Below, one piece after another: positions 17,322 to 55,246 of a DNA stretch of 64,000 bases. Position 1 is the first letter of the stretch. Each line of letters begins with the position of its first letter. Below the pieces are notes generated by a model. That model was given only the letters and a program-made list of their open reading frames with translations. It made no database searches and was not told where the DNA came from. The stretch comes from Acidimicrobiales bacterium (GTDB lineage Bacteria > Actinomycetota > Acidimicrobiia > Acidimicrobiales > Palsa-688): the NCBI GenBank assembly GCA_035552775.1, contig DASZKW010000043.1:1-64000 (forward strand), given 5' to 3'. A program made the translations under genes and the position numbers.

Positions 17322-18047
17322 ATGGGACTCCAGCAGTTCGAGCGCCGCCTCGAACGCCTCGTCGAAGGGGTGTTCGCAAGGGCCTTCCGCAGCGGGCTCC
17401 AGCCCGTCGAGGTGGGGCGCCGCCTGGCGCGCGAGATGGACCTGAGGCGCCAGGTGGCACCGAAGGGGATCCTGGCGCCCAACCGGTTCATAGTCTCCCT
17501 CTCCCCCGAGGACCGTGCCCGCTTCGCACCCATAGAGGACGAACTGGTCCGTGAGCTGATGTCGGTGGCCAAGGACCACGCCCGCAGCGAGGCTTACTCC
17601 TTCGTCGGGCCGGTGGAGGTGGACCTCGAGACCGACGACGACCTGTCGCCGGGCGTGGTGCTGGTGTCGGGGGAGATGATGGGCGACGAGCGCCCCGCCC
17701 CTGGGCGCGGCGCTCCCACGGGGGCGCCCCCGCGCGGTGCCATGACGGGGGCGCCCCCGCGCCGTGGCGCCACCATCGTCCTGCCGGACGGCCGGCGCCT
17801 GGTGCTGGGAGCCAAGAGCCTGGTCATGGGCCGGCTCCCTGAGTGCGACCTGGTGCTCGCCGACCCCAACGTGAGCCGCCGCCACGCCGAGCTGCGCCCG
17901 GCGGGCAACGGGCGCTTCGAAGTGGCCGATCTGGGCAGCACCAACGGGACCAGGGTGAATGGCATCCCGGTGAGGGGGGCACAGCTTCTCCGCGACGGCG
18001 ACGAGATCACCGTGGGAGCCACGGCCGTGCGCTTCGAGCAGGGCTGA
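17322..18047 (+). CDS. fhaA: FhaA (DUF3662 plus C-terminal FHA domain)
   Basis: MGLQQFERRLERLVEGVFARAFRSG N-terminus and a C-terminal FHA domain (GRLPECDLVLADPNVSRRHAEL...GSTNGTRVNG). Confidence 0.85.
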   Translation: MGLQQFERRLERLVEGVFARAFRSGLQPVEVGRRLAREMDLRRQVAPKGILAPNRFIVSLSPEDRARFAPIEDELVRELMSVAKDHARSEAYSFVGPVEVDLETDDDLSPGVVLVSGEMMGDERPAPGRGAPTGAPPRGAMTGAPPRRGATIVLPDGRRLVLGAKSLVMGRLPECDLVLADPNVSRRHAELRPAGNGRFEVADLGSTNGTRVNGIPVRGAQLLRDGDEITVGATAVRFEQG

Positions 18048-22685: not shown

Positions 22686-24656
22686 ATGCCGCCGCCGCAG
22701 CAGCAACAGGTCTTCAGCGACCGCTACGAGCTCGTCCGCCATGTCGCCCGTGGGGGCATGGCCCAGGTGTACCTGGCGAAGGACCTTCTCCTCGACCGCC
22801 CGGTGGCCCTCAAGGTCCTATTCCCGGAACTGTCGGTCGACCAGTCCTTCGTCGAGCGCTTCCGGCGGGAGGCCCAGGCCGCCGCCAACCTGTCCCACCC
22901 CAACATCGTCTCGATCTACGACTGGGGCCAGGGCGAGCAGACCTACTTCATAGTCATGGAGTACATCGACGGCCACACGCTCTCCTCGCTCATCCGCCAA
23001 GGCCTACCCGGTCCTGAAGGCCAGCCCCCCACTCCCCTCGACGCCGGCCGGGCCGCCGCCATCGGCGCCGACGTGGCGTCGGCGCTCGAGTTCGCCCACC
23101 GCCACAACGTCATCCACCGCGACGTCAAGCCCGGCAACGTCCTGCTCGACAAGTCGGGCCAGGTGAAGGTCACCGACTTCGGCATCGCCCGCGCCGTCGG
23201 TGCCAAGGAGGGGCTGACCCAGACGGGCGCGGTCATGGGCACGGCCACCTACTTTTCCCCCGAGCAGGCCCAGGGCTACTCGGTCGACGCCCGCAGCGAC
23301 ATCTACTCGCTCGGGGTGGTGCTCTACGAGATGGTGGTCGGCCGCACGCCCTTCGACGGCGACAATCCGGTGGCCATCGCCTACAAGCACGTGCGCGAGG
23401 TACCTGTGCTGCCGAGCGTGGCCAACCCGGCGGTGCCCAAGTCCTTCGAGGCCATCATCATGCAGGCCATGGCGAAGGATCCCGACGCCCGCTACCAGAC
23501 GGCCGACGCCCTGCGCGCCGACCTCATGCGCTTCCATCTGGGGCAGGGGGTCATGGCTCCGGAGGTGACCCCCACAATGGTGGCAGCGACGGGGGTCCTC
23601 CCCCCCGCCCGGGTCGCGCGCGACGCCACCGTGGTACGCGACGGTGCCGTGCTCGAAGACGAGGAGCGTTCGCGCACGGCCTTGTGGGCCGCCCTGCTGC
23701 TCCTGCTCCTCGCGCTGCTCGGCGTGCTCATCTTCTTCCTCGGACGCCATTTCGGCCTGTGGGCAACGGGCGCCAAGACCCTCACCGTGCCCACCAACCT
23801 GGTGGGCCAGCCCTACAACTCGGCCCGCGCCGAGCTGACCAGGGACGGGTTCACGGACGTGGCCAAGGCCACCAGGTCGAGCACCCAACCCGTCGACCAG
23901 GTGCTCGCCAGCACGCCGACCGGCGGCAGCCAGATGAAGGCCAACGGCTTGCTGACCCTGGATGTCAGCGGCGGTCCCGCCCAGGTCGGCGTGCCCAACG
24001 AACAGGGCCAACCCCAGGCCGCCGCCGTCGCCGACCTCACCAGCAAGGGCTTCCAGGACACCGTCAGCACCCAGCCCTCTCCCACCGTGGGGCAGGGCAT
24101 CGTGATCAGCCAGACCCCGCCCGGCGGCGCCACCGCCGCGCAAGGCTCGACGGTCAACCTGGTGGTCTCCAGCGGTCCGGCGACTGTCGCGGTGCCCTCG
24201 GTGGCCAACGACGACCCCACCACGGCCGACAACGCCCTCCACGCCGCTGGGCTCAACCCGACCCAGAAGAACCAGGCCTCGAGCCGGGTCAAAGGTGGCC
24301 TCGTCATCGGGACCAACCCGCCGGCGGGAACGCAGGTGACCCCGGGGTCGGCTGTCACCGTCTACGTGTCCACCGGGCCGGCGCAGGTGACGGTGCCCAA
24401 CGTCGACGGCCAGACGCTCCAGCAGGCGCAGGCCATGCTCAGCGCCGCGGGCCTCACCCCCAGCGTGACCGAGCAGCCGGTGACCGACCCGAGCCAGAAC
24501 AACCAGGTGCTGTCGTCCAACCCGGCGCAGGGGACGACGGTCAACCAGGGGTCCACGGTGACTCTGGTGGTCGGCCAGTACACGGCGCCCTCGACGACCA
24601 CCACCGCCCCGCCGGCGACAACGACCACCACGGCCGGTACCACGACGACGGGATAG
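22686..24656 (+). CDS. pknB: Ser/Thr protein kinase PknB with four PASTA domains
   Basis: Kinase motifs (HRDVKPGNVLL, DFG, SPEQ). TM. Four PASTA repeats. C-terminal Thr/Pro-rich tail. Confidence 0.9.
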   Translation: MPPPQQQQVFSDRYELVRHVARGGMAQVYLAKDLLLDRPVALKVLFPELSVDQSFVERFRREAQAAANLSHPNIVSIYDWGQGEQTYFIVMEYIDGHTLSSLIRQGLPGPEGQPPTPLDAGRAAAIGADVASALEFAHRHNVIHRDVKPGNVLLDKSGQVKVTDFGIARAVGAKEGLTQTGAVMGTATYFSPEQAQGYSVDARSDIYSLGVVLYEMVVGRTPFDGDNPVAIAYKHVREVPVLPSVANPAVPKSFEAIIMQAMAKDPDARYQTADALRADLMRFHLGQGVMAPEVTPTMVAATGVLPPARVARDATVVRDGAVLEDEERSRTALWAALLLLLLALLGVLIFFLGRHFGLWATGAKTLTVPTNLVGQPYNSARAELTRDGFTDVAKATRSSTQPVDQVLASTPTGGSQMKANGLLTLDVSGGPAQVGVPNEQGQPQAAAVADLTSKGFQDTVSTQPSPTVGQGIVISQTPPGGATAAQGSTVNLVVSSGPATVAVPSVANDDPTTADNALHAAGLNPTQKNQASSRVKGGLVIGTNPPAGTQVTPGSAVTVYVSTGPAQVTVPNVDGQTLQQAQAMLSAAGLTPSVTEQPVTDPSQNNQVLSSNPAQGTTVNQGSTVTLVVGQYTAPSTTTTAPPATTTTTAGTTTTG

Positions 24657-43038: not shown

Positions 43039-43920
43039 CTACTCGGGGAAGGGCCGCTCCACCCAGCGATCGAGGGCGGACAGGAGAGCATCGGCGATCT
43101 CAGCGGCGCGCATGACGGCGACCGACGCCGGACCGATCTCCACCAGGACCGCTGGCATCCGGGTTTCCCGCAGGATGGTGATGCGCATGCCCCGGCAACC
43201 GGTACCGGGGATACGGAGCCGTGCCGGTAGATCCTCGTGGACAAGACCGGCGAGGTGGCGCCCGGCTTCCGAACAGAAGCCGTTGTGGCCCAAGAAGTAA
43301 GCGGTGCGACATCCGTCCAGGTCCGGGTCGAGCCGCACCCCGAGGTATACGTCGACCTTGGCGGCGTTGGCCTGCGCCGCCTGGGCGGATTCGTCGAGGT
43401 CGTGCAGGCTCAGCACCTCGGCTCCTCCCCGGCGCAACGCCCGGCGGATGGCGTCGGCCAGCGCCGCCAGTCCTCCGGTCTCGCCGACCGCGATGCGCCA
43501 GCCCCGCAGGGTGCGGGGAGCGTCGCTCAGGCGTACCCGCTCCCGGATGCCCGCCACGAGCACCGTCCCGGTTATCTTCGCCGTGTAGCTACGCAACAGC
43601 TGCACGGTTCCCGGACCGCAGATCCCGTCTTCGGTCAGGCCCAGGTTGCGCTGGAACTCACAGACCGCGGCGTGCGTTTGGGGCCCGAAGATCCCGTCCA
43701 CCCGGCCGGCGTCGAAACCGAGGGCGCCCAGCTGGCGCTGCAGGGAGGCCACGTCGTCGCCCCGCAGCATCCCTCGCCGGTAGTACAAGAGCCGCTCGCC
43801 CAAGGTCCGCCCGGCCTCCACCAACGCGTTCCAGGTCTGATGGCCGCAGACGGCATCCACCCTCAGCCCGTGGCTGGCCTGGAACACACGGACAGCGGCG
43901 ACGGTGCCCGGACCGAACAA
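43039..43920 (-). CDS. CwlM-like protein: two peptidoglycan-binding domains plus degenerate amidase_3-like domain; 5' end unresolved
   Basis: PG_binding_1 repeats (GPGTVAAVRVFQASHGLRVDAVCGHQTWNAL; DGIFGPQTHAAVCEFQRNLGLTEDGICGPGTVQLL). The annotated TTG start truncates the first domain (see findings). Confidence 0.6.
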   Translation of the reverse strand: MFGPGTVAAVRVFQASHGLRVDAVCGHQTWNALVEAGRTLGERLLYYRRGMLRGDDVASLQRQLGALGFDAGRVDGIFGPQTHAAVCEFQRNLGLTEDGICGPGTVQLLRSYTAKITGTVLVAGIRERVRLSDAPRTLRGWRIAVGETGGLAALADAIRRALRRGGAEVLSLHDLDESAQAAQANAAKVDVYLGVRLDPDLDGCRTAYFLGHNGFCSEAGRHLAGLVHEDLPARLRIPGTGCRGMRITILRETRMPAVLVEIGPASVAVMRAAEIADALLSALDRWVERPFPE

Positions 43921-44174: not shown

Positions 44175-44501
44175 CTACAGGAATTGATTTAGCTCCTCGA
44201 GTAGCTGACCCTTGCCCTTGGCACCGACGAGACGGAGCCGCGGCTCACCGTCCTTGAACAGGATGAGGGTAGGGATGCTCATCACGTCGAAGCGTCGAGC
44301 CAACTCGAGGTTGTCGTCCACGTTGATCTTGGCGATGCGCAACCTTCCCTCCGTGTCGGATGCGATCTCGTCGAGCACGGGAGCGATCATCTTGCATGGC
44401 CCGCACCACTCGGCCCAGAAGTCGACGAGGACAGCTCCCTCAGCCCCTTTGATCTCCTCATCGAACGTTTGATCCGTGAGCGTCAATGCGCCTTCAGCCA
44501 C
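44175..44501 (-). CDS. trxC: thioredoxin
   Basis: WCGPC active site. GTG start giving about 108 aa. Confidence 0.85.
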   Translation of the reverse strand: MAEGALTLTDQTFDEEIKGAEGAVLVDFWAEWCGPCKMIAPVLDEIASDTEGRLRIAKINVDDNLELARRFDVMSIPTLILFKDGEPRLRLVGAKGKGQLLEELNQFL

Positions 44502-44616
44502 TGAACTCGACCTCCTGGAAGTATGCGGGACATCTGCCCCACGCGACTGCTGCAACGCCGGGCGGCAGGACCCACATTCCGGTCCTACCCAAGGCCGCCG
44601 TGCGACTTGTGTCCTC

Positions 44617-45618
44617 TCAGCCTGACCAATCCTCGGTCACGGCCACCTCGCCGGCGCCCGCGCCCTCCAACCACCGCTCGGCGTCGATGGCGGCCATGCA
44701 GCCCGATCCCGCAGCGGTGACGGCCTGGCGGTAGGTGTGGTCCTGCACGTCGCCGCACGCGAAGACTCCCTCGACGTTGGTGCGGGTGCCGTCGTGGGTG
44801 AGGAGATAGCCGGCGTCATCCATGTCCAGCTGACCTTGGAACAGGGCGGTGTTGGGCACGTGGCCGATGGCCACGAACACACCGGTGGCGTCCAGCGTGC
44901 TCTCCTCGCCGGTCACCACGTTTCGCAGGGCGACGCCCTCGACCATGTTGTCACCCAACACGTCGGTCACCACCGTGTCCCAGATGAAATCCACCTTGGG
45001 GTTGGCGAACGCTCGGTCCTGCATGATCTTGGACGCTCGCAACTCCTTGCGCCTGTGGATCACGGTCACCTGGTCGCCGAACTTGGCCAGGTGGTTGGCC
45101 TCCTCCAGGGCGGAGTCTCCGCCCCCCACCACGGCGATGTGGTGGCCGCGGAAGAAAAAACCGTCACACGTGGCGCACGTCGACACCCCGTGGCCGAGCA
45201 GACGCGATTCCGACTCCAACCCGAGCATGAGCGAGCGGGCGCCGGTGGACACGATGATCGAGCGAGCAGTGAACTCGATCTCCGCTCCCGTCGAAGGGTC
45301 GGTGGCCCACACCCGGCGGGGACGCCCCGAGAAGTCAACCCGAACAACTTTCGAGGTCACGAACTCGGCCCCGAAACGCTCGGCCTGGGCACGCATGGTG
45401 ATCATGAGTTCGGGCCCCATGACGGCGTCCGCGAAGCCGGGATAGTTCTCCACTTCGGTGGTGAGCATCAGTTGGCCACCGGGTTGGTCGCTCGTGGACG
45501 ACGGCTGTCCCTCGATCACCAAGGGGTGCAAGTTGGCCCGGGCCGTGTAGATGGCCGCCGTGAGACCCGCGGGGCCCGAACCGACGATGATCACGTTGCG
45601 CATCGCGCTATCCGACAT
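44617..45618 (-). CDS. trxB: thioredoxin-disulfide reductase
   Basis: GSGPAG FAD motif. CATC redox-active site. GGGDSA NADPH motif. Confidence 0.9.
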   Translation of the reverse strand: MSDSAMRNVIIVGSGPAGLTAAIYTARANLHPLVIEGQPSSTSDQPGGQLMLTTEVENYPGFADAVMGPELMITMRAQAERFGAEFVTSKVVRVDFSGRPRRVWATDPSTGAEIEFTARSIIVSTGARSLMLGLESESRLLGHGVSTCATCDGFFFRGHHIAVVGGGDSALEEANHLAKFGDQVTVIHRRKELRASKIMQDRAFANPKVDFIWDTVVTDVLGDNMVEGVALRNVVTGEESTLDATGVFVAIGHVPNTALFQGQLDMDDAGYLLTHDGTRTNVEGVFACGDVQDHTYRQAVTAAGSGCMAAIDAERWLEGAGAGEVAVTEDWSG

Positions 45619-46130: not shown

Positions 46131-46508
46131 GTGCGGACTGTACTCGCCGTCGCGGTCGGTGCCGCCCTGGCGGCCGTCGCGGCGGTGATCCTCGGAGAGT
46201 ACAACTTCAGCGGGGCCGTGCCGTGGGTGGCCGGTGTGGCGGTACCCGCGGTCATGGGAGAGGCGGTGGTCCTGATAAACGGGCGGGGCGAACCCGAGCT
46301 GTGGCTGGCGGTGGCAGCGCTCTCCGCCGGGGGTCTGGCTTGGGGGGCGTGGCTGTCGGAGGGCAGCGGCCTGAGCCCCCTGCCCCTGGACGGCTGGGTG
46401 GCCATCGCGCTGGGAGCGCTGGTCCCCATCGTGTTCGCCCTCGGCGGCCGCCGTCAGGGGAAAAGAACACCCACCAAAGCCGACGAAGCTCACTCAGGTC
46501 ACCTGTAA
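46131..46508 (+). CDS. hypothetical membrane protein
   Basis: 125-aa Ala/Leu-rich ORF with three hydrophobic segments. Weak evidence. Confidence 0.3.
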   Translation: MRTVLAVAVGAALAAVAAVILGEYNFSGAVPWVAGVAVPAVMGEAVVLINGRGEPELWLAVAALSAGGLAWGAWLSEGSGLSPLPLDGWVAIALGALVPIVFALGGRRQGKRTPTKADEAHSGHL

Positions 46509-48389
46509 CTCGCTGATCGACAGGGTGAGCGCCGGCCCGGTGTCAGTCATCCACAGCAGAACCCAACTCCCGGAGCGGTTCCCGAGATCGAATGTCGTCG
46601 ACCCGGCGATGTCGGTGTGCGTGGCGGTGAGTGGCCCCCAGGCGGCCAGGTCGGCGCCATCGGCGCCGGCGACGTAGGTGCTGGCCGCCCAGCCCTGGGT
46701 GGGCGAGGTCACCGACAGGCGCTGGAGGGGCTGGGTACCGACCAGGTGGATGGCGAGGCCCTCGCCGCCGTAGCCGGCGAAATCGCGGCCGTAGTAGCGC
46801 GACGTCTGCCAGGCCGTGCGGTCATTGCCGTCGTAGGTGTACTTGACGTCCTGAGGGTTGTCGGCATGTTTCTGGGGCGGCACGATCCACACCGAAACGT
46901 CACTGATCGTCACCGTGGTGCCGGACGCCCCCGCCGAGTTCGGGTGCCCCCCCCCGTGGCCGCCGACGACGAGCATGCCGGCCACCACCACCCCGGCGAT
47001 CGCCAATGCCCCAACGACGAGGCCCGGTGCCCGGCGACGCCGGCGGCGGCCCGGCGGGGGGCCGGCCCGACCGGGGGTCTCCTGGGTCGGCCGGTGCCGG
47101 CCGGGGGACTGCTGGGCGGGCCAGGCTCTACCGGTGCCCCCCTGCGGCGGGAAAGCCCCGCCGGCGCCCGCCGGAGCCGGCCAGGCCCTGCCGGCGGCTT
47201 CCTGGGCCGGGCCGACCCCCGCCCAATAGGGACCGGCGGCTGCCCTGGCACCCGTCGCCGTCTGGCGATCGGTGCGTGTGTCGGGAATGCCAGCCTCCGC
47301 CGCCTCTTCCTGCCGGCCCCGCCCAGCCACCTCGGTGTGCGACGCGTCCGATCGTCGATCCCGAGGTCCGGCCGAGTTAGCCCCCTCCGTGAGGGAACGG
47401 GCCGGGCGCTGCTGATGGCCTCTTGGTCCCGCCGGACCCTGCCCCGCCGGGCCGGCACCTCCGTCGGGACGGCGCTCACCGAGACGCCGGCGCCGGCCGG
47501 GTGCCCCGACCGGGGGAGGCGAATCGGTGGCCTGCAGGCCGACGAGCATCTGGCTCAAGGCGGTGGCCGAGGGCACCCGCCGGGCGGGGTCTGTGGCCAG
47601 CATCTCCGCCACCAGGGCGTCGAGGGGCCCCGACACGTCGGCACGAAGGCTGCGCAACCGCGGTGCGGGTCGGTCTAGGCGGGCCATGGCCATGGCCATC
47701 TCGCTTTCGCCATCGAACGGCGACCGCCCGGCCAGCATCTCGAATGTCACCACTCCGAGTGCGTACACGTCGGCGCGGGCGTCGGGCTCGATGCCCTGCA
47801 CCTGCTCGGGGCTCAGGTAGCGCGGGGTCCCCAGGACCATGCCGGTGCGGGTGAGGTCCATGCCCAGGCTCTCGGCCGCCTTGGCGATGCCAAAATCTGT
47901 GACCTTTACACCGGGCACCTCGGCGCCGTCGTCGAACAACAAGATGTTCGCCGGTTTGATATCGCGGTGAATGATCCCGGCCCGGTGGGCGTGGACCAGC
48001 GCGTCCGCGATCTGGGAGGTGATCCCGACGGCCAGCCACGGGGGGAGCATCCCCCGCGTCGCGAGATACTGCCGCAGGGTGTCGCCGCGCACCAGTTCCA
48101 TCACGATGTAGGTGGTTGGTCCGTCCACTCCGGCGTCGAAGGTGGCGACCACCCTCGGGTGGACGAGACGGGCGGCGGCGATCGCCTCACGCCGGAAGCG
48201 TTCGAGGAAGATCTCGTCGGTGGCGTATTGGCGCTGGAGGACCTTGATCGCCACCGCCCGGCTGAGGACCTGGTCGTGGGCCTCCCACACGTCGGCCATG
48301 CCCCCCCTGGCGATGGGGCGGACCAATCTGTAACGCCCACTCAGGACCTGGTCGACGGTCAGAGGCGCTGGGGCGTCAGGTCCGGGCAC
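46494..48389 (-). CDS. active Ser/Thr protein kinase with TM segment and C-terminal extracellular discoidin/galactose-binding-like domain
   Basis: Intact catalytic motifs (Gly loop ARGGMADV, VAIK, HRDIKPANILL, DFG, SPEQ). Long disordered linker, one TM (VVGALAIAGVVVAGMLVV), and a 150-aa beta-rich C-terminal domain. GTG start at 48389. Confidence 0.8.
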   Translation of the reverse strand: MPGPDAPAPLTVDQVLSGRYRLVRPIARGGMADVWEAHDQVLSRAVAIKVLQRQYATDEIFLERFRREAIAAARLVHPRVVATFDAGVDGPTTYIVMELVRGDTLRQYLATRGMLPPWLAVGITSQIADALVHAHRAGIIHRDIKPANILLFDDGAEVPGVKVTDFGIAKAAESLGMDLTRTGMVLGTPRYLSPEQVQGIEPDARADVYALGVVTFEMLAGRSPFDGESEMAMAMARLDRPAPRLRSLRADVSGPLDALVAEMLATDPARRVPSATALSQMLVGLQATDSPPPVGAPGRRRRLGERRPDGGAGPAGQGPAGPRGHQQRPARSLTEGANSAGPRDRRSDASHTEVAGRGRQEEAAEAGIPDTRTDRQTATGARAAAGPYWAGVGPAQEAAGRAWPAPAGAGGAFPPQGGTGRAWPAQQSPGRHRPTQETPGRAGPPPGRRRRRRAPGLVVGALAIAGVVVAGMLVVGGHGGGHPNSAGASGTTVTISDVSVWIVPPQKHADNPQDVKYTYDGNDRTAWQTSRYYGRDFAGYGGEGLAIHLVGTQPLQRLSVTSPTQGWAASTYVAGADGADLAAWGPLTATHTDIAGSTTFDLGNRSGSWVLLWMTDTGPALTLSISELQVT

Positions 48390-48443
48390 GACGCCGGCAA
48401 GGCTACCGGCCGAAGTTGCCGCCCTGGCATCAACACGATGTAC

Positions 48444-48540
48444 CAAGGCGAGCGTTGCTACGTCGACTCCCCGAGGAACGAAGGTCCAGGGTAACCGTCC
48501 GAGTCGGCGACAGCATCGTCGACGTAGCAACGCTCGCCTT
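48444..48540. repeat. perfect 23-bp inverted repeat (aaggcgagcgttgctacgtcgac / gtcgacgtagcaacgctcgcctt) with 51-nt spacer; member of a repeated element family
   Basis: Seen directly. Lies between degV and the kinase in a locally low-GC stretch. Partial second copy at 11393-11448. Confidence 0.85.
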
Positions 48541-48700
48541 TGTAAGTCCCGGCAAAATCGTGGCCTGTGGTAACGAATCGGAGCCCCGACTACGCCCGTC
48601 CGGCATCTTGTGTGCAGTTCCCGGGGATATAGCCAATGTTTCTGCAGTTAAGGTCAGCGCCGGCCGGCGACGGGGGAGGTTTTCGGCCCAGCGGGCTCTG

Positions 48701-49561
48701 CTAGTGGCCTGCGGGGGCAGGGCGGGCGCGGAGCATGGCCACGCCGATGGCGCCGGGACCACAGTGTGTCCCGATGACGGGGCCGATCTCGCCCACCACA
48801 ATGGGTACTGCCGGCTTGACGTCGGCAATGAGGGCGAGAAAGTCGTCGAGGTCGGGGGCGTCCGCCCCGAACGCGGCCATGCGCTCGAGCGGCCCTGCGG
48901 CGTGAACCTTGGCGGCCAGGTAACGCAGCGAACGACCCCGCGTCCGCTGCTTGGATTCCTCGGCCACCTCCCCGTCGCGCACCTCGATCACCGGTTTGAT
49001 GGCGAGCATCGATCCGATCATGGCCTGGGCGCCGCCGATGCGGCCTCCGTTGCGGAGATTCTCCAAGGTGTCGAAGGCGGCGAACACCAGCAGGCGGCTC
49101 TGGGCCCCGGCGACGGCGTCGGCCACCTCGTCGAGGCCTTTCTCCTCCTCCGCGGCCTGGGCGGCGATGAGCACCTGCAGCCCCTGTCCCAGGGTGACGT
49201 TGAGCGAGTCCACCACGAGCACCGGTAACCGTCCTTGCAGGTCCCGTGCCGCTTGCCGTGCGGCCTCGATCGTCGCCGACAGCTTCGAGGACAGGCTCAC
49301 ACACACGACTCCGTCGGCGCCCTCGCCGGCCATGCGGACGAAGGCCTCTCGGAAGTGGCCCGGCGACGGTGCCGCGGTGGCCGGCAGCCCGGCGAAGCTG
49401 CGCGCCCGGGCCCAGAAGTCCTTGGTCGGCAGTTCCTCGCGATCGACCAGTTCCTCGTCGCCGAAGCGGATCCGCAGCGGTACGAGACCTATGCCGTGCT
49501 CGGTGAGCACCTCGTCGGGAAGATCGCAAGCGCTATCGGTCACGACGCGGATACCGGGCAT
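48701..49561 (-). CDS. DegV-family fatty-acid-binding protein
   Basis: MPGIRVVTDSACDLP N-terminus typical of DegV. Confidence 0.8.
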   Translation of the reverse strand: MPGIRVVTDSACDLPDEVLTEHGIGLVPLRIRFGDEELVDREELPTKDFWARARSFAGLPATAAPSPGHFREAFVRMAGEGADGVVCVSLSSKLSATIEAARQAARDLQGRLPVLVVDSLNVTLGQGLQVLIAAQAAEEEKGLDEVADAVAGAQSRLLVFAAFDTLENLRNGGRIGGAQAMIGSMLAIKPVIEVRDGEVAEESKQRTRGRSLRYLAAKVHAAGPLERMAAFGADAPDLDDFLALIADVKPAVPIVVGEIGPVIGTHCGPGAIGVAMLRARPAPAGH

Positions 49562-49626
49562 GGCCCCCCTCTAGGTGACGTTGTTGTGAATGTTCGGACC
49601 ACGACGCTCCCCCGATGGTGACACGC

Positions 49627-52041
49627 TCAGCCGGCCGGGCGCCGCACACGAAGCACGTTGCGGACCTCGGCCACCCCGAGCCACAAGGCGACGAGGATGT
49701 ACACCGCCGCTCCCACCGCGCCGAGCACCACCACCCGCAACAACAGCACGGCGATCGCACCGCTGTTGGGAAGGAGGGCCGAGAGCCCCTCGAGCACCGC
49801 GGCCATGACAGCGGTCGCCAGCACCACCCTGAACGCGGCGACGAAGACGGCCGAGCCCTGCAGACCACCGGCTTTGACCCGTAGGTGGGCGAAGGACGCG
49901 ACGGCCGCCACCGAGTACGCCCCGATCCAGCCGATGACCAGACCCTTGACGCCGAGCATGGGGTAGAGACCCACCCCCACGAGCAAGGTGAGGGCGTTCT
50001 CGAAGCAGTAACGCCAGAACATCGAGCGGGTGTCCTTCATCGACTGGTATGCACGCATGAGAAGCAGGTACACGCTGAACCCGGGCAGGCCCACGGCGAA
50101 GATTGCGACGAGCACCCCGGTCAGGTGGGCCTCGCCGACCGACACCCGGCCGTGGCGCAGGGCAAGGCGGAGCAGGGGCTCGGCGAGGATGGCGTAGCCC
50201 ACGCCGGCGGGGACCATGATGGCGAGGGTGAGACGCAGGCCCGAACCCATCCGCGCCCTGAACGCTCGCAGCCGGCCGGCCGACCAGCGCTCGGCGAGAT
50301 CCGGGGCGATCACCGACGCGATGGACACCGCGAATATGGCGTAAGGCAGCTGGAAGAACTGGTAGGCGTAGTTGAACGCGGTCACGTCGCCGCTACGGGA
50401 GCTGGCCAGGAGCTGGATCACGTAAAAGCTCACCTGGTTGGCCAGCACGGCCCCGAATGTCCACCCCGACAGCCGCAATACCGTGCGCACCGCAGGATGC
50501 CCCGGCTCCCATACCGGGCGGAGGCGGACGCCCGTGCCGAGCAAGGCCGGCAGCTGGGCGCCGAACTGGACGAGGTAGCCGGCGGTGGTCCCGAGACCGA
50601 GGACGAGTATGGCGGCCTCGTCCCGCGCGAAGCCGGTCAGGGTGAGCGAGTGGGCCACCACGCCGGTCAGGATCACCGCGGCGACGGTCACGAGGTTGCA
50701 AACGATGGGGGAAAAGGCGGGCGCCGCGAACCGGCGCCGCGCGTTTAGCAGCGCCGTTGTCACCGCGATGGCCCCGAGGAGGAATAGCTGGGGCGCGAAG
50801 AGGCGCAACAGGTGGGTGGCGAGTTGGCGTTCGGCCCCGATGGCCGCCCCATGGTCCCTCACCAACAGCAGGTCGATGATGAGGGGGGCGGCCAACCAGA
50901 ACAGCGCCGTCAGCACCACCAGGGCGGCGGTGATGGTGGTAACCACGGCCGAGATGGACCTGTCCCCCTCGCGGCGGTCCCGCCGGGCCAGTTCTTCCAC
51001 GAAAACCGGTATCAGGGTGGCCGACAGCACCCCGCCGAGAACGAGGTCGTAGATGCTGTTGGGCATGTTGTTGGCCAGGTTGTAGGCGTCGGCCAGGCGG
51101 TCGACACCCAGCACCCAAGCCAGGGCGAGGACCTTGCCAAAGCCGGTGAGGCGGGACAGGAGGGTGCCCACGGCCATCATCGACGTGTTGCGGGAGAACG
51201 ACCGGCGCTCGTCGGCACCTTCCACCGGCAGACGCACGGGTGATGGCGGAGCGGGCGGGCGCGTCCCCCCGGGCTCGGGGGGTGGGGGCGGTGGCACGGG
51301 CCTTGTCGGCGACGACGGCACTCCGGGCCCGACGGGGGGCGCCGGCCGACCCGTTCGACCAGGCGGCGTGGCCGGCGCGGCCGGGGGAGGGGCCGGCGCG
51401 GGCGCGACCGGGGGGGCGGCTCGATCGGGCGGCGCGGCCGGCGCCGCCGGCGGGGAGGCGGGCAGGATCACCGGCTGGTCCGAAGGCTCGCCCCGGCGCA
51501 ACGTCGTCGGCGCCCGTGTCGGCGGGGGGGGGATTGCGGGGAGCGCCGGCCGGCGACTGCCTGCTCCCTGGCGGTCGTCGGGGCGTTCCCGGGCCGTGGT
51601 CTCGACTGGACCGCCGTCCGGCTCGAGGACCCGCACCCCCGAGCTGACCCGGAAGCCGGGCCGGACGGAGCCGGGCTGGTCGGGCGGTTCGATGCGACGC
51701 TGCGGACCCACGCGGACGGCATCGACGCCCACAGCGGCCACCGGGCCCGACAGCCCGGTGGTTGCCATCCCTATCGACGTGTAATCCGGGTAGTGGGGGG
51801 CGCCGTAGTCGGGCCCGGAGGCGTCCGCGTCGCCCTCGTCATCCACCTCGTCCGCCCGGCCCCCCCTGGCCGACCGGTAGTCGTGGGCTGGACCGTAGAC
51901 CTTGTCCCCCGAGCGGTGGTCCTTCGCGCCATCGTGGCGCCCCGGGCTCACCTCCGGTGCCCAGCCCGGGGTGGGCGGTCCGGATACTCCGGCGGCGGGG
52001 ACGCAAAGAACTCGGCCACCACGGGATCGTCGTCGACCCAC
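49627..52041 (-). CDS. murJ: lipid II flippase MurJ/MviN with an apparent roughly 280-aa proline-rich N-terminal extension (start uncertain; core begins near 51190)
   Basis: 14-TM MurJ core from MMAVGTLLSRLTGFGKV. The upstream in-frame region is Pro/Ala-rich with high GC3. Confidence 0.75.
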   Translation of the reverse strand: MGRRRSRGGRVLCVPAAGVSGPPTPGWAPEVSPGRHDGAKDHRSGDKVYGPAHDYRSARGGRADEVDDEGDADASGPDYGAPHYPDYTSIGMATTGLSGPVAAVGVDAVRVGPQRRIEPPDQPGSVRPGFRVSSGVRVLEPDGGPVETTARERPDDRQGAGSRRPALPAIPPPPTRAPTTLRRGEPSDQPVILPASPPAAPAAPPDRAAPPVAPAPAPPPAAPATPPGRTGRPAPPVGPGVPSSPTRPVPPPPPPEPGGTRPPAPPSPVRLPVEGADERRSFSRNTSMMAVGTLLSRLTGFGKVLALAWVLGVDRLADAYNLANNMPNSIYDLVLGGVLSATLIPVFVEELARRDRREGDRSISAVVTTITAALVVLTALFWLAAPLIIDLLLVRDHGAAIGAERQLATHLLRLFAPQLFLLGAIAVTTALLNARRRFAAPAFSPIVCNLVTVAAVILTGVVAHSLTLTGFARDEAAILVLGLGTTAGYLVQFGAQLPALLGTGVRLRPVWEPGHPAVRTVLRLSGWTFGAVLANQVSFYVIQLLASSRSGDVTAFNYAYQFFQLPYAIFAVSIASVIAPDLAERWSAGRLRAFRARMGSGLRLTLAIMVPAGVGYAILAEPLLRLALRHGRVSVGEAHLTGVLVAIFAVGLPGFSVYLLLMRAYQSMKDTRSMFWRYCFENALTLLVGVGLYPMLGVKGLVIGWIGAYSVAAVASFAHLRVKAGGLQGSAVFVAAFRVVLATAVMAAVLEGLSALLPNSGAIAVLLLRVVVLGAVGAAVYILVALWLGVAEVRNVLRVRRPAG

Positions 52042-54530
52042 AACGCGATCGCCTCCTCCGGGCGGCCAGCCGTCCCGGCTGCGGGCTCGGGTTCGGGCTG
52101 CACCACACCATCGTCGGGCTGCGCCACACCATCGTCGGGCTGCGGGGCACTGTCCGCCCGCTCCGGGACACCCTCGCCGGGCTCGGGGGCGGCTGGTGCA
52201 CCGTTTGCCGACTCCCCGTCCGCGAGCCGCCCGCTCGCCGCTTCTCGTTTGCCCGGTGCCGTTGCTCGGACTGCTCCGGGCAAGGACCGGGTCCCCTCGA
52301 CGGGCAGGGCCGCGCCGTTGCCTGCTCCGCGCCCCGATAGGGCGACCTCGGCACCCGGGCTGGCGACCGACGCGTCGCCTGAGCCGTCGCCTCCTTCGTC
52401 AACTGGGGGAAGCGGGGGGTCGACCAGTTGGCGGGCCCGCCGGCCGTGGCGTCGGTCGCGCACCCACCACACGCCAAGCAGCAACACCGCACCGATCATG
52501 AGAATTATCGCCACCACCGACACCGCGGTGCTGCGCACCGTGTAGTGGGCCTGTCCGAGCACGAGCGAACCGTCCCCCGAGCGCAGGGCGAGCTGGAGGG
52601 TGAAGACCCCGGTGGTCCTGGCCACCACCGGGACGCGCAAGGTGGTGGCCGGTCCCGTGAGGCTGAGGCTGCACACGACGGTGGTGGCGTCGCTCGACTG
52701 GCAGGTGCCCTCGGGGGGTTTGAACGAGTGGAAGGTCAGCTTTTGGCTGGTGAGCTGGAGGCGGACGCGGGCGACGCCGCTGCTGGTGCTCAGGACGGTG
52801 ACTGGGACGTTGCCGTTCTGGGAGGTGAGGGTTAGCGACACGCCCGGCGGCAACCGCACGCGGCCCGTCGCCGCCGAGAGGTCGTGTGCGACGCTGCCCA
52901 GGGCCGTCGAGCGCCGGCGGGCCGACAGGTCACTGGACTCGCCTACAAGCACCCGGCGCGCAAAGGCCCCGGCCTGGGCAGTGGCGGTGGGAAACGTCGA
53001 CTCGAAGGCGCTCAGCTGACGGCGCACGGCTCGCACGGCGGCCGCCTCGGAAAAGGTGTCGGTGGGCGGGCGGGGTGACACCAGGGACCGGCTGAGCGGG
53101 GTCGTGGCGCGAGGGACGCTGGCGAAGAGCTGGTCGAGTGTCATCGGCTGCAGAAGCGGGTTGCCGTGCAACCCGTCGAGAACCGTCTCGATGAACGCTG
53201 TGTTCGCGGTCCAGCTGCGCGGGGTCAGGACCCCGATGCCTCGTTGGTCGCCCGGCGTCTCGGTCTCGATCATGGACAGCTCGGCCAGCAGCTGGTCGGC
53301 CTGCAGGACCTGGTCCCCGGTGTTGGTGAAATGACGATCGAGATTGGTGTCTGCCCCGAGCACCGAGGTGGTGCCAGGCGACGCTTGGTTCACCCCCGGT
53401 GTCTCCAGCGAAGTGGGCTGCGCGAACGTCGTCTGCTGGCCCGCCGGCAGTGGGTCGAGGTCGCCGTCGGGCACGACGAGGCGGACAGCTCCGCGAGCCT
53501 CCAACACCCCCGCCGTCGAAGGGTCGAGGGGTCCGTCCACCGCCCACGTGCCCGGGTCGGCGGATGTCTGCAGGGTGGTTTGCAGGGTGCCGGCGCCGGC
53601 GCGCAGCTGGGCGCGTACCTCGCCGTCGAGGCCGGCCGCCTCCAGGGCGGGAAGGTCGAGTGCGACGTAGGGGGCGGGGAGGACCTGGTCGGGACCCGCC
53701 GCCACCGCCGAAAGCGCCGCTAAGGGGGCTTTACCCGACGCGCCGGCCGCGCTCAGCGAGTCGAGCGTCTGGGGGTCGGGTATCACCGAAACGGCCACGC
53801 CCGGGTGGGCGTCGAGGACGCCGATCTCGCCGCCGAGGCCGGTTACCGTGCTCGCCGACAACCGGCCGGGCTCGCCTGAGTTGGTGAGAGCCGGCGCGGC
53901 ACGCACCGGCAGGACCCAGGACACGGCCAGCTTGGGGAACCCGTTGGCCGTGGGTACCCACACCAGGTAGGTGGTGAGCGGATCACCCAGGAAGGCGCCG
54001 TTGGACCGGTTCACCACCCCGATCTGGACGGGATAGACACCGTTGTTGGTGCTGTTCAGCCCGATGCTGGACAGCCCTCCGGGCGGCGGCGGGGCGGCAG
54101 AATCGATCGGCAGCACGACCTCGGACCCTCCGCCCGGGCCGGCGGGCAGCGTGGAGACCGGTACCTGACCGCTCTGCCAGATGTAGCTGCCCCGCATCTG
54201 ACCGGCGAGGGTCGTCTCGAAGTCCGTGGTCGTGGTCAGCCGCGGGTATACGTACATGGCGAGCGCGGCATCCGCAGGGGCGTTCGGCGAGACTCGCACG
54301 TCCATGACGAACTGGGCGCCTGCGCCCCCTCCGACCCAGGGTGACTGGTCGACGACGCTGAGCAGGGCACTGGGGGACGACGAGGGCAACGAAGGGGGCG
54401 TCGTCGTCGTCGTGGTCGACGGCCCCGGGTTGTGGTGCGGTGACGCGGACGCCACCGGGGTGGCACCGAAAGAGGTGAGCACGGCGCCGCACGCGGCCAG
54501 GGCGCGCCACCACGGCCGGCGCCGGGTCAC
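51948..54530 (-). CDS. Rv3909-like large secreted protein (signal peptide, C-terminal TM and acidic cytoplasmic tail)
   Basis: 860 aa. The GTG start overlaps the GNAT stop (GTGA). Signal peptide WWRALAACGAVLTSFGATPVASA. TM AVSVVAIILMIGAVLLLGVWWV. 21-bp tandem repeat in the tail. Confidence 0.65.
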   Translation of the reverse strand: MTRRRPWWRALAACGAVLTSFGATPVASASPHHNPGPSTTTTTTPPSLPSSSPSALLSVVDQSPWVGGGAGAQFVMDVRVSPNAPADAALAMYVYPRLTTTTDFETTLAGQMRGSYIWQSGQVPVSTLPAGPGGGSEVVLPIDSAAPPPPGGLSSIGLNSTNNGVYPVQIGVVNRSNGAFLGDPLTTYLVWVPTANGFPKLAVSWVLPVRAAPALTNSGEPGRLSASTVTGLGGEIGVLDAHPGVAVSVIPDPQTLDSLSAAGASGKAPLAALSAVAAGPDQVLPAPYVALDLPALEAAGLDGEVRAQLRAGAGTLQTTLQTSADPGTWAVDGPLDPSTAGVLEARGAVRLVVPDGDLDPLPAGQQTTFAQPTSLETPGVNQASPGTTSVLGADTNLDRHFTNTGDQVLQADQLLAELSMIETETPGDQRGIGVLTPRSWTANTAFIETVLDGLHGNPLLQPMTLDQLFASVPRATTPLSRSLVSPRPPTDTFSEAAAVRAVRRQLSAFESTFPTATAQAGAFARRVLVGESSDLSARRRSTALGSVAHDLSAATGRVRLPPGVSLTLTSQNGNVPVTVLSTSSGVARVRLQLTSQKLTFHSFKPPEGTCQSSDATTVVCSLSLTGPATTLRVPVVARTTGVFTLQLALRSGDGSLVLGQAHYTVRSTAVSVVAIILMIGAVLLLGVWWVRDRRHGRRARQLVDPPLPPVDEGGDGSGDASVASPGAEVALSGRGAGNGAALPVEGTRSLPGAVRATAPGKREAASGRLADGESANGAPAAPEPGEGVPERADSAPQPDDGVAQPDDGVVQPEPEPAAGTAGRPEEAIALWVDDDPVVAEFFASPPPEYPDRPPRAGHRR
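52090..52139. repeat. 21-bp tandem repeat x2 (ctgcgccacaccatcgtcggg) in the tail of the Rv3909-like gene
   Basis: Seen directly. Encodes PDDGVAQ/PDDGVVQ. Confidence 0.75.
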
Positions 54531-55246
54531 CGGAGGCCGGCCGAGAGCACCGACAACCCGGACGGTTCCTCCCGGAAGCCGGCCGCGAGGTAGAGGGCGA
54601 GGGCGACGTCGTTTCCCACCTGGGTGTTCACCAGTGCGCGCCGAGCCCCCCGCCGGCGCAGCCAGTGCAAGCCGTCGAGGAGGAGGCGCCTCCCGGTACC
54701 GGTGCCCTGACCGGCGGGATCGACCGCCAGGCGCTGGACGAAACCGCGCCTGACCGCCCGGCCGCAAATTGCGTAGCCGATGACGTGGCCTTGGTCACCG
54801 ATCGCGGTGCGCACCCGGGTGTGGGGGGTGGCGCTGATGGCGTCGAGCAGGGTCCGGGCGTCGAACCGCCAGAACGTGGAAAACGCCGCTCTGTCGACGG
54901 CGAGGATGTCGGCGTGCCGTGACCGCCCGCCGCGCCGCAGCACCAGACCGTCAGGCACGGCGGGCAACGGGGGGCGGAGATCGACACCCAGCAGATGAAG
55001 GCGTTGCTCCACCGCGAAGCCGGCGGCGAGGAAACCGCCCTGCTCGGCAGGCAACAAGGCACCGGTGACGACCCGGGCGAAACCCCGATCGGCGAGGATC
55101 GCCAAGCAGCGCTTGACGAACTCGGAGGAGGGCAGGGGCGAGTTGGGCAGCGGTGCCAGGTAGGCGACATGGCGATCACCCCGCCACGGACCGGTCCGGG
55201 CACGTTCGTGCCCCCAGCGCAGCACGTCAGCGGTGGGGACGCTCAT
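54527..55246 (-). CDS. GNAT-family N-acetyltransferase
   Basis: Acetyl-CoA binding motif RLAVDPAGQGTGTGRRLL. Confidence 0.75.
   Translation of the reverse strand: MSVPTADVLRWGHERARTGPWRGDRHVAYLAPLPNSPLPSSEFVKRCLAILADRGFARVVTGALLPAEQGGFLAAGFAVEQRLHLLGVDLRPPLPAVPDGLVLRRGGRSRHADILAVDRAAFSTFWRFDARTLLDAISATPHTRVRTAIGDQGHVIGYAICGRAVRRGFVQRLAVDPAGQGTGTGRRLLLDGLHWLRRRGARRALVNTQVGNDVALALYLAAGFREEPSGLSVLSAGLR

Follow-up and report, generated by a model that had tools for sequence, protein, structure and literature searches.

The 64,000-nucleotide (nt) stretch of Acidimicrobiales DNA analysed here (hereafter the window; all coordinates refer to the whole stretch) carries a gene for a receptor-type Ser/Thr kinase two genes downstream of murJ, the gene for the lipid II flippase, with a gene for a DegV-family protein between them. 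On the minus strand, the genes follow the order GNAT, a 939-amino acid (aa) membrane-anchored protein, MurJ, DegV, the kinase, a 127-aa membrane protein, trxB, trxA and a CwlM-like gene, and parB in this row lies on the opposite strand (Table 1). In Mycobacterium tuberculosis (Mtb), the pseudokinase of MviN (Rv3910) and FhaA form a regulatory module (PMC12599244, PMC10166564 and PMC11898655), the textbook case in bacteria of cell-wall synthesis under pseudokinase control. The descriptions consulted here confine this complex to Mycobacteriales and give its extracellular domain no known ligand, and according to a 2023 study the MviN pseudokinase extension is restricted to arabinogalactan-bearing organisms. 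The original prediction for the window, made from the sequence alone, had read the locus as a split, active-kinase version of this module. Here we describe the kinase and its outer domain, compare them with MviN and with a wider protein family, and weigh the explanations for their likeness.

An apparently active receptor kinase

The product of the gene at 46494-48530 is apparently a catalytically competent Hanks-type receptor kinase, judged from its intact motifs. The Pfam Pkinase model matches aa 67-326 of the 678-aa open reading frame (ORF; E = 4.7e-46), and the closest solved relatives of the domain are PknB and PknA of Mtb (about 1e-57). Every sequence feature of an active Hanks-type Ser/Thr kinase is present, from the Gly-rich loop through the activation segment ending in S/APE: ARGGMADV (aa 74), VAIK (93), the alpha-C Glu in RFRREA (111), HRDIKPAN (188), DFG (212), the activation loop TRTGMVLGT (227) and SPE (240). 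The dead-kinase motifs described for MviN and ActPs3 pseudokinases (VALT, LSIDHPSR and a truncated activation loop; PMC12599244) do not occur in the window kinase, which has VAIK, HRD, DFG and a full activation loop in their place. Likewise, it shows none of the ActPs3 losses, which comprise the VAIK Lys, the HRD Asp, the DFG Asp and about 40 residues of the activation loop.

In a hydropathy scan, aa 503-524 was the sole segment above threshold, and six Arg residues precede it. The kinase-fold domain is thus followed by one transmembrane helix, which has the Arg cluster on its N-terminal side, and the C-terminal domain is predicted to lie outside the cell. Pfam, the motif positions and hydropathy thereby bear out the original description of a separate Ser/Thr kinase with all catalytic motifs and one membrane span, two genes downstream of MurJ; the DegV-family gene placed between them was equally confirmed by Pfam.

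The low-complexity linker between the kinase domain and the helix could serve as a phospho-docking region. It shows no counterpart of the DRTEVL context that surrounds the Thr947-type site of Mtb. A juxtamembrane motif found in many members of the wider family (DDAxP...TPPxG) is absent from both the window protein and MviN. We also considered LQATDSPPPVGAP of the window protein and the Mtb phosphopeptide GGSLQEVADTSPSPVGAIR as a common juxtamembrane docking motif and rejected the pairing, because the Mtb peptide is part of the pseudokinase domain itself and because conservation of the motif does not extend to the closest relatives of the window.

A predicted discoidin/CBM32-fold outer domain

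While no Pfam model matches the C-terminal domain of the window protein, structure prediction places it with confidence. An AlphaFold model of aa 539-678, built on 30 relatives, reached a predicted local distance difference test (pLDDT) score of 95.3, and its top fold matches in the PDB were CBM32/F5-8 type C modules, with template modelling (TM)-scores of 0.6-0.8. A sequence profile of the domain leads to F5/8 type C proteins and the N-domain of galactose oxidase in the PDB (E = 5.8e-6 to 2e-3), and sub-threshold Pfam matches to F5_F8_type_C or CBM_AftD occur in 15 of 30 family members (best E = 4.3e-5). On the evidence of this model, the region is a divergent discoidin domain for which carbohydrate binding is predicted from the fold, which agrees with the discoidin/galactose-binding-like domain originally proposed. 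It has the beta-sandwich and the DGNxxTxW motif in common with known CBM32/F5-8 type C modules, such as those of Clostridium perfringens GH89 and ZmpB and the galactose oxidase N-domain. However, it is just 11-21% identical to them, and it is joined to a signalling kinase, whereas theirs are joined to a glycoside hydrolase or protease.

Comparison with MviN

For comparison with MviN, we searched the PLSDB plasmid collection by tblastn with a family discoidin domain and found loci in Nocardia farcinica (NZ_LN868939.1, 2.66 Mb) and Nonomuraea gerenzanensis (NZ_LT559118.1, 11.85 Mb), in both of which the ORFs and domains were confirmed at the locus level. Although filed as plasmids, these two records represent chromosomes or parts of them, since the origin-proximal locus with DUF6049, MurJ, TrxB and TrxA is present in each; CwlM is found in the Nocardia record only.

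The MviN protein of Nocardia farcinica (Mycobacteriales) has 1584 aa and comprises a proline-rich extension, the MurJ domain, a pseudokinase, a transmembrane helix and a C-terminal domain. Its pseudokinase carries VALT, LSIDHPDR and FPG, the published MviN/ActPs3 motifs, and matches Mtb MviN (3OTV) at 271 bits, so that the protein is a true MviN. The family discoidin profile aligns over its full length with the Nocardia MviN tail at 70-74 bits (E about 6e-18, Z = 1e6), and a narrow profile restricted to the window domain and its five nearest relatives still scores 37 bits. Profile-to-profile alignment with hhalign gave a probability of 99.1% (E = 1.9e-18) over 141 columns, and BLASTP with the C-terminal domain of the window alone gave 29% identity (E = 3e-9). 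The similarity to the MviN extracellular domain, on which the original prediction depended, is therefore clear.

Gene order lends independent support. The Nocardia locus runs from a DUF6049 gene through the MviN fusion to an extracytoplasmic function (ECF) sigma factor, TrxB, TrxA and CwlM, and the window kinase gene occupies the MviN slot, between DUF6049/MurJ and (sigM)/trxB/trxC/cwlM. The locus of Nonomuraea gerenzanensis (Streptosporangiales) has DUF6049 and MurJ followed by a separate gene for a 530-aa protein of the form pseudokinase, transmembrane helix and discoidin domain, and then by ECF sigma factor, TrxB and TrxA; the pseudokinase gene begins about 100 nt after MurJ, with no degV. 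Together with further loci described below, these form a graded series of (1) an active kinase after MurJ-DegV, as in the window, (2) a dead kinase after MurJ-DegV, (3) a dead kinase directly after MurJ and (4) a dead kinase fused to MurJ.

Mtb MviN and the window locus thus have in common a cytoplasmic kinase fold that one transmembrane helix connects to a carbohydrate-binding-like domain outside the cell, homologous outer domains (by way of the Nocardia orthologue), a slot between DUF6049/MurJ and sigma factor/TrxB/TrxA/CwlM, and a genome with FhaA and a PASTA-type PknB. They differ in that the window kinase is a gene of its own, two downstream of murJ and with degV in between; that its catalytic residues are all intact, in contrast to the VALT, LSIDHPSR and deleted activation loop of Mtb MviN; that its linker is long and of low complexity; and that it lacks the conserved Thr947-type site. 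Because Mycobacteriales fill the same slot with the C-terminal tail of MviN, we consider it likely that the window gene is an unfused, still catalytically active homologue of this pseudokinase-helix-discoidin tail and that the mycobacterial fusion is the derived state.

A large family of discoidin-bearing kinases and pseudokinases

An exhaustive profile search returned 1791 cluster representatives (at 50% identity) with E <= 1e-3, and the make-up of the family was judged on the best 150 of these. The long proteins among the 150 combine a kinase domain, a transmembrane helix and a discoidin domain, and the majority retain HRD, DFG and VAIK. In about 15 of the long representatives in this set, the kinase domain has degenerated into a pseudokinase, and the outer domain is of the same type. 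These stand-alone pseudokinases align well with one another; the VAIK Lys and the catalytic HRD Asp are lost and the activation segment is shortened in them, and the DFG Asp is retained in about half. Their profile leads to the Mtb MviN structures 3OTV, 3OUN and 3UQC (E = 3.9e-19). With single pseudokinase sequences as queries, MviN was not among the PDB matches listed, a profile of the C-lobe and juxtamembrane region alone gave no match to MviN, and a chimera built on an anchor peptide ranked MviN too low for an alignment to be listed.

When the C-terminal domain was used in word-indexed homologue searches, short gene fragments were the only matches, and a chimeric MurJ-plus-discoidin query found solely unfused MurJ proteins among the 120 matches listed. 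By profile similarity and gene order, this is a large, almost unannotated actinobacterial family with a fixed slot in an origin-proximal cell-envelope locus. One truncated member, consisting of the transmembrane helix and discoidin domain alone, is labelled 'putative peptidoglycan lipid II flippase' by the Joint Genome Institute (JGI). A second subfamily of discoidin-bearing kinases (loci within L044-L048, and L051) is encoded outside the conserved locus, beside other Ser/Thr kinase genes.

DegV is the constant partner of the kinase

Loci were drawn from look-ups of the encoding contigs, from a species-genome scan (three close loci) and from a metagenome scan (42 loci); the window proteins were mapped onto all of them, and kinase motifs were scored in the discoidin-bearing ORFs. 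The recurring order is GNAT, DUF6049, MurJ (in some loci), DegV, the discoidin-bearing kinase, ECF sigma and anti-sigma factors (in some loci), a small membrane protein, TrxB, TrxA, CwlM and ParB. DegV lies immediately upstream of the kinase in 30 of 30 loci of the conserved type with a visible upstream region, two of which are near-identical. The constant partner of the kinase is thus DegV rather than MurJ, and this strongest conserved partner is in no current model of MviN regulation. Across the DegV-kinase pairs (the window and loci within L001, L004-L007, L012-L015 and L017-L052), the gap is usually 0-130 nt, and stop and start codons often overlap or nearly touch. In three other Acidimicrobiia (L009, L010, which is Acidiferrimicrobium sp. 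IK, and L011), the origin-proximal locus holds DUF6049, DegV and the kinase without MurJ, and the MurJ proteins (51-53% identical) are encoded at another locus, beside adenylosuccinate lyase and a GT2 glycosyltransferase, which may reflect either relocation of the gene or a paralogue.

Stand-alone pseudokinase genes follow MurJ-DegV in L012, L013 and L015, and the loci of Nonomuraea and Nocardia lack degV. Where the upstream region was visible, pseudokinase forms were adjacent or fused to MurJ in five of five loci (L012, L013, L015, L058 and L059, the last two being the loci of Nocardia and Nonomuraea), compared with 6 of 22 for active kinases. The one-sided Fisher probability for this association is about 0.006 when loci are counted as independent, that is, with shared ancestry ignored and with uneven sampling.

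Kinase-domain phylogeny

Kinase domains were compared in two neighbour-joining trees, one of 31 sequences over 254 trimmed columns (tree 1) and one from an alignment rebuilt with added outgroups, trimmed by the same rule and run with 60 replicates (tree 2). The outgroups were PknA, PknB, PknE and three neighbouring kinases. The pseudokinases of Nocardia MviN and Nonomuraea fall among the stand-alone discoidin-bearing pseudokinases in both, with 70% bootstrap support in tree 1 and in 42 of 60 replicates in tree 2.

Origin of the kinase gene and competing explanations

Several observations weigh against descent of the MviN tail from a kinase of this kind, or against its tie to MurJ. The outer-domain comparison was made with the Nocardia orthologue, standing in for the Mtb domain, and the degV-to-kinase gap is 170-310 nt in the window compared with 0-130 nt in relatives. 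MurJ lies between DUF6049 and DegV in just 9 of 25 judgeable loci, and since it is encoded elsewhere in L009, L010 and L011, adjacency lends limited support to a MurJ link. Within the kinase domain, the profile of the stand-alone pseudokinases scores PknB at 164 bits and the MviN pseudokinase at 72 bits, the pseudokinases sit on long branches and are joined to the active locus kinases in 42% of replicates, and the second discoidin-kinase subfamily groups with PknA. The kinase of the window does not fall among unrelated Ser/Thr kinase families, the outcome that would have spoken against the original prediction, but its placement is weakly supported by that 42%. The main weight of the case is carried by the outer domain, together with the common architecture and synteny.

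The scarcity of MurJ beside the pair, its location elsewhere in Acidiferrimicrobium and two further genomes, and the unbroken, tightly spaced association with DegV would suit a different function, in which the DegV-kinase pair serves to sense or control the state of membrane lipids or fatty acids and its adjacency to murJ is an accident of locus history with no control over lipid II flipping. This explanation is compatible with common ancestry with the MviN tail. We regard it as rather unlikely, as the rest of the locus is oriented towards the cell wall (CwlM, DUF6049 and, in a third of cases, MurJ), lineages without degV (Nonomuraea and Nocardia) retain the kinase-like gene beside or fused to MurJ, and the fold of the outer domain is a carbohydrate-binding rather than a lipid-binding one. 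The weak kinase tree bears instead on whether the likeness to MviN is convergent or the result of domain shuffling, with the Mycobacteriales tail built independently from a PknB-like duplicate and a discoidin domain acquired elsewhere. The 42% bootstrap value, the higher profile score of PknB and the failure of discoidin-bearing kinases to form a single group speak for such an origin. Yet the parts follow in identical order (kinase-like domain, transmembrane helix and discoidin domain), the outer domains are homologous across their full length, the genes fill the same slot in a colinear locus of about ten genes, and graded intermediates exist (L012, L013, L015 and L059), so that we hold independent assembly to be very improbable.

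It is more improbable still that the 678-aa ORF is an artefact, produced either by the merging of two genes at the low-complexity linker or by gene decay. The suspicion arises from error-prone, probably long-read relatives (L001, L005, L006 and L007), in which the kinase and discoidin parts are in different frames, and from the many database entries that are short discoidin-only calls. However, the same assemblies carry frameshifts in murJ, trxB and degV as well as in the kinase gene, and these look like assembly errors because several housekeeping genes are broken alike, which would in turn account for the many short discoidin-only entries. Short entries are also located at contig ends, and dozens of short-read metagenome contigs encode the matching architecture in one unbroken ORF of 500-600 aa.

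With 1791 clusters at 50% identity, the unfused form is so widespread that it probably represents the ancestral state and not a split. The original prediction of a split, active-kinase version of the MviN module therefore stands as regards the active-kinase homologue, which the outer domain, synteny and architecture support, and has the direction wrong as regards the split, since the fusion appears to be derived. The likely order of events, read from the present-day loci, is that catalysis was lost, then degV, and that fusion to murJ followed. It is also possible, though we put it forward tentatively, that DegV and the discoidin receptor kinase are an undescribed two-gene envelope-sensing unit ancestral in Actinomycetota, in which catalysis was repeatedly lost in favour of a scaffold role where the unit was tied to MurJ, ending in the MviN fusion.

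Proposed mechanism and relation to known systems

For the unfused kinase itself, we propose that the outer domain would bind a cell-wall glycan and that binding would drive PknB-like autophosphorylation of the activation loop (TRTG). Phospho-Thr residues on the kinase linker or on envelope proteins (the MurJ N-terminal extension, CwlM or DegV) may then recruit the FHA domain of FhaA, and this recruitment may tune lipid II export. The kinase would thereby act in cis as PknB acts in trans on the MviN pseudokinase. Alternatively, its output could be direct phosphorylation of neighbouring envelope proteins. If the MviN tail is indeed a degenerate, fused copy of a widespread active receptor kinase, sensing by the outer domain becomes testable through a phosphorylation read-out, the change from kinase to scaffold can be traced in a natural series (active and separate, dead and separate, dead and fused), and why a fatty-acid-binding DegV accompanies every active form becomes a defined question.

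Among known systems, ActPs3 pseudokinases are the nearest to the stand-alone pseudokinases described above, which likewise have lost the Lys and Asp, show a shortening of the activation segment, bear a transmembrane helix on the C-terminal side and group with the MviN pseudokinase; the window protein differs from them as a kinase with intact motifs. A 2025 review (PMC12599244) describes ActPs3 pseudokinases other than MviN as having no carbohydrate-binding domain. In contrast, profile and fold evidence indicates that stand-alone pseudokinases of this type do carry a carbohydrate-binding-like domain, which is sub-threshold in Pfam and is missed by current domain libraries, and this corrects the published view.

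PASTA-type kinases such as PknB and PknA resemble the window kinase in their kinase domains (43-46% identical, 46% for the PASTA-type PknB of the window itself), in the TxT activation loop and in a juxtamembrane linker that leads through one transmembrane helix to an extracellular sensor. They differ in using PASTA repeats as the sensor where the window kinase has a discoidin/CBM32 fold, and a PASTA-type PknB is encoded separately in the same window. Consistent with this, the window kinase scores 345 against a cutoff of 450 with the PASTA-kinase model NF033483 (PknB_PASTA), the kinase part alone matching. The animal discoidin-domain receptor tyrosine kinases DDR1/2 also combine an extracellular discoidin domain, one transmembrane helix and a cytoplasmic kinase, but they have the opposite chain orientation and belong to another kinase class, so the parallel is an analogy that implies no common origin of the architecture. 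A preprint presenting an atlas of bacterial kinases (bioRxiv 10.1101/2025.01.12.632604) does not mention the MurJ neighbourhood or discoidin domains, and literature searches on DegV with MurJ and a kinase, on DUF6049 and on Streptomyces locus tags found nothing relevant.

MurJ and its N-terminal extension

The MurJ ORF of the window matches the Pfam MurJ model over aa 308-771 (E = 1.3e-73) and passes the equivalog model TIGR01695 (272.7 against a cutoff of 235.55). As had been claimed, it lacks an MviN-type module: the protein terminates right past its last membrane segment, and neither a kinase-like nor an extracellular part follows. No covalent fusion of a kinase-like tail to the MurJ C terminus exists in the window, where MurJ stops at 49627 and degV intervenes.

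Ahead of the MurJ domain, the claimed proline-rich N-terminal extension (280 aa in the original prediction) found support from three sides. Third-position GC tracks the MurJ frame from about 51980; an island of the form G[FY]R[VL]SSGVR[VI]L is conserved in frame and at the protein level in relatives L001 and P0175; and in MviN of Nocardia farcinica the MurJ domain is preceded by a comparable proline-rich stretch, about 388 aa long. Of the two candidate starts, GTG 51951 overlaps the upstream stop codon as GTGA (51948-51951), and GTG 52041 has the Shine-Dalgarno sequence GGAGGAGG. Translation of the extension is no more than likely, because the source's gene call (P0172, 536 aa, 100% identical) leaves it out. 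In several Acidimicrobiales (P0185, P0202 and P0209), the DUF6049 protein and MurJ form a single ORF of about 1230 aa, with a proline-rich stretch as the joint.

Other features of the window

Table 1 Positions of the kinase, its parts and associated genes in the window
Feature	Coordinates	Strand	Remarks
GNAT acetyltransferase	54527-55246	-	Start of the gene row, same row as murJ
DUF6049-like membrane-anchored protein, 939 aa	51948-54767	-	Matches the DUF6049 gene upstream of MviN by position
MurJ lipid II flippase ORF	49627-52041	-	Probable start GTG 51951 or GTG 52041; Pfam MurJ domain 49729-51120
Proline-rich N-terminal cytoplasmic extension of MurJ	51121-51951	-	22% Pro
DegV-family (FakB-like fatty-acid-binding) gene	48701-49561	-	Pfam E = 3.4e-71; constant neighbour of the kinase on its upstream side
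Receptor Ser/Thr kinase coding sequence, 678-aa ORF	46494-48530	-	Start between TTG 48530 and GTG 48389
Kinase domain, aa 67-326	47553-48332	-	Catalytic motifs complete
Low-complexity cytoplasmic linker, aa 327-502	47025-47552	-	G/A/R/P-rich, 10 Thr
Lone transmembrane helix, aa 503-524	46959-47024	-	RRRRRR before it on the cytoplasmic side
Predicted extracellular discoidin/CBM32-fold domain, aa 539-678	46497-46916	-	Homologue of the extracellular domain of MviN
Small conserved membrane protein, 127 aa	45643-46026	-	In the kinase-trxB interval
Thioredoxin reductase TrxB	44617-45618	-	Locus marker
Thioredoxin	44175-44555	-	Locus marker
CwlM-like protein	43039-43920	-	Two PG_binding_1 repeats and a weak Amidase_3 match
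Short FhaA (FhaA_N and FHA)	17322-18047	+	Phospho-Thr-binding residues GR, SRRH and NG present
Canonical PknB, four PASTA repeats	22686-24656	+	Second, distinct cell-wall kinase of the window

The fhaA gene reported for the same window was found as described, with FhaA_N and FHA domains, at the head of a row that includes a PASTA-type pknB besides pstP, rodA and pbpA. Since an fhaA-pknB operon near the origin is standard in actinobacteria, the presence of fhaA is not specific evidence for an MviN-like module. The FhaA of the window has 241 aa, with a linker of 40 aa between FhaA_N and FHA; mycobacterial FhaA has about 500 aa. The 939-aa protein upstream of MurJ has no Pfam match of its own, and its tblastn relatives have PF19516. 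With regard to the CwlM-like gene at the far end of the row, CwlM of Mtb is a PknB substrate and binds both MurJ and FhaA (PMC6180346).

In the species-genome scan, the genomes nearest to the window were Acidimicrobiia-type metagenome-assembled genomes and Acidiferrimicrobium. The GC content of the window is about 70%, with about 75% between 2000 and 14000 and about 69% elsewhere. Finally, a 125-aa membrane-like ORF on the plus strand (46131-46508) is convergent to the kinase gene, overlaps its 3' end by 15 nt and is 44% identical to a stretch at the equivalent position in Acidiferrimicrobium (L004).

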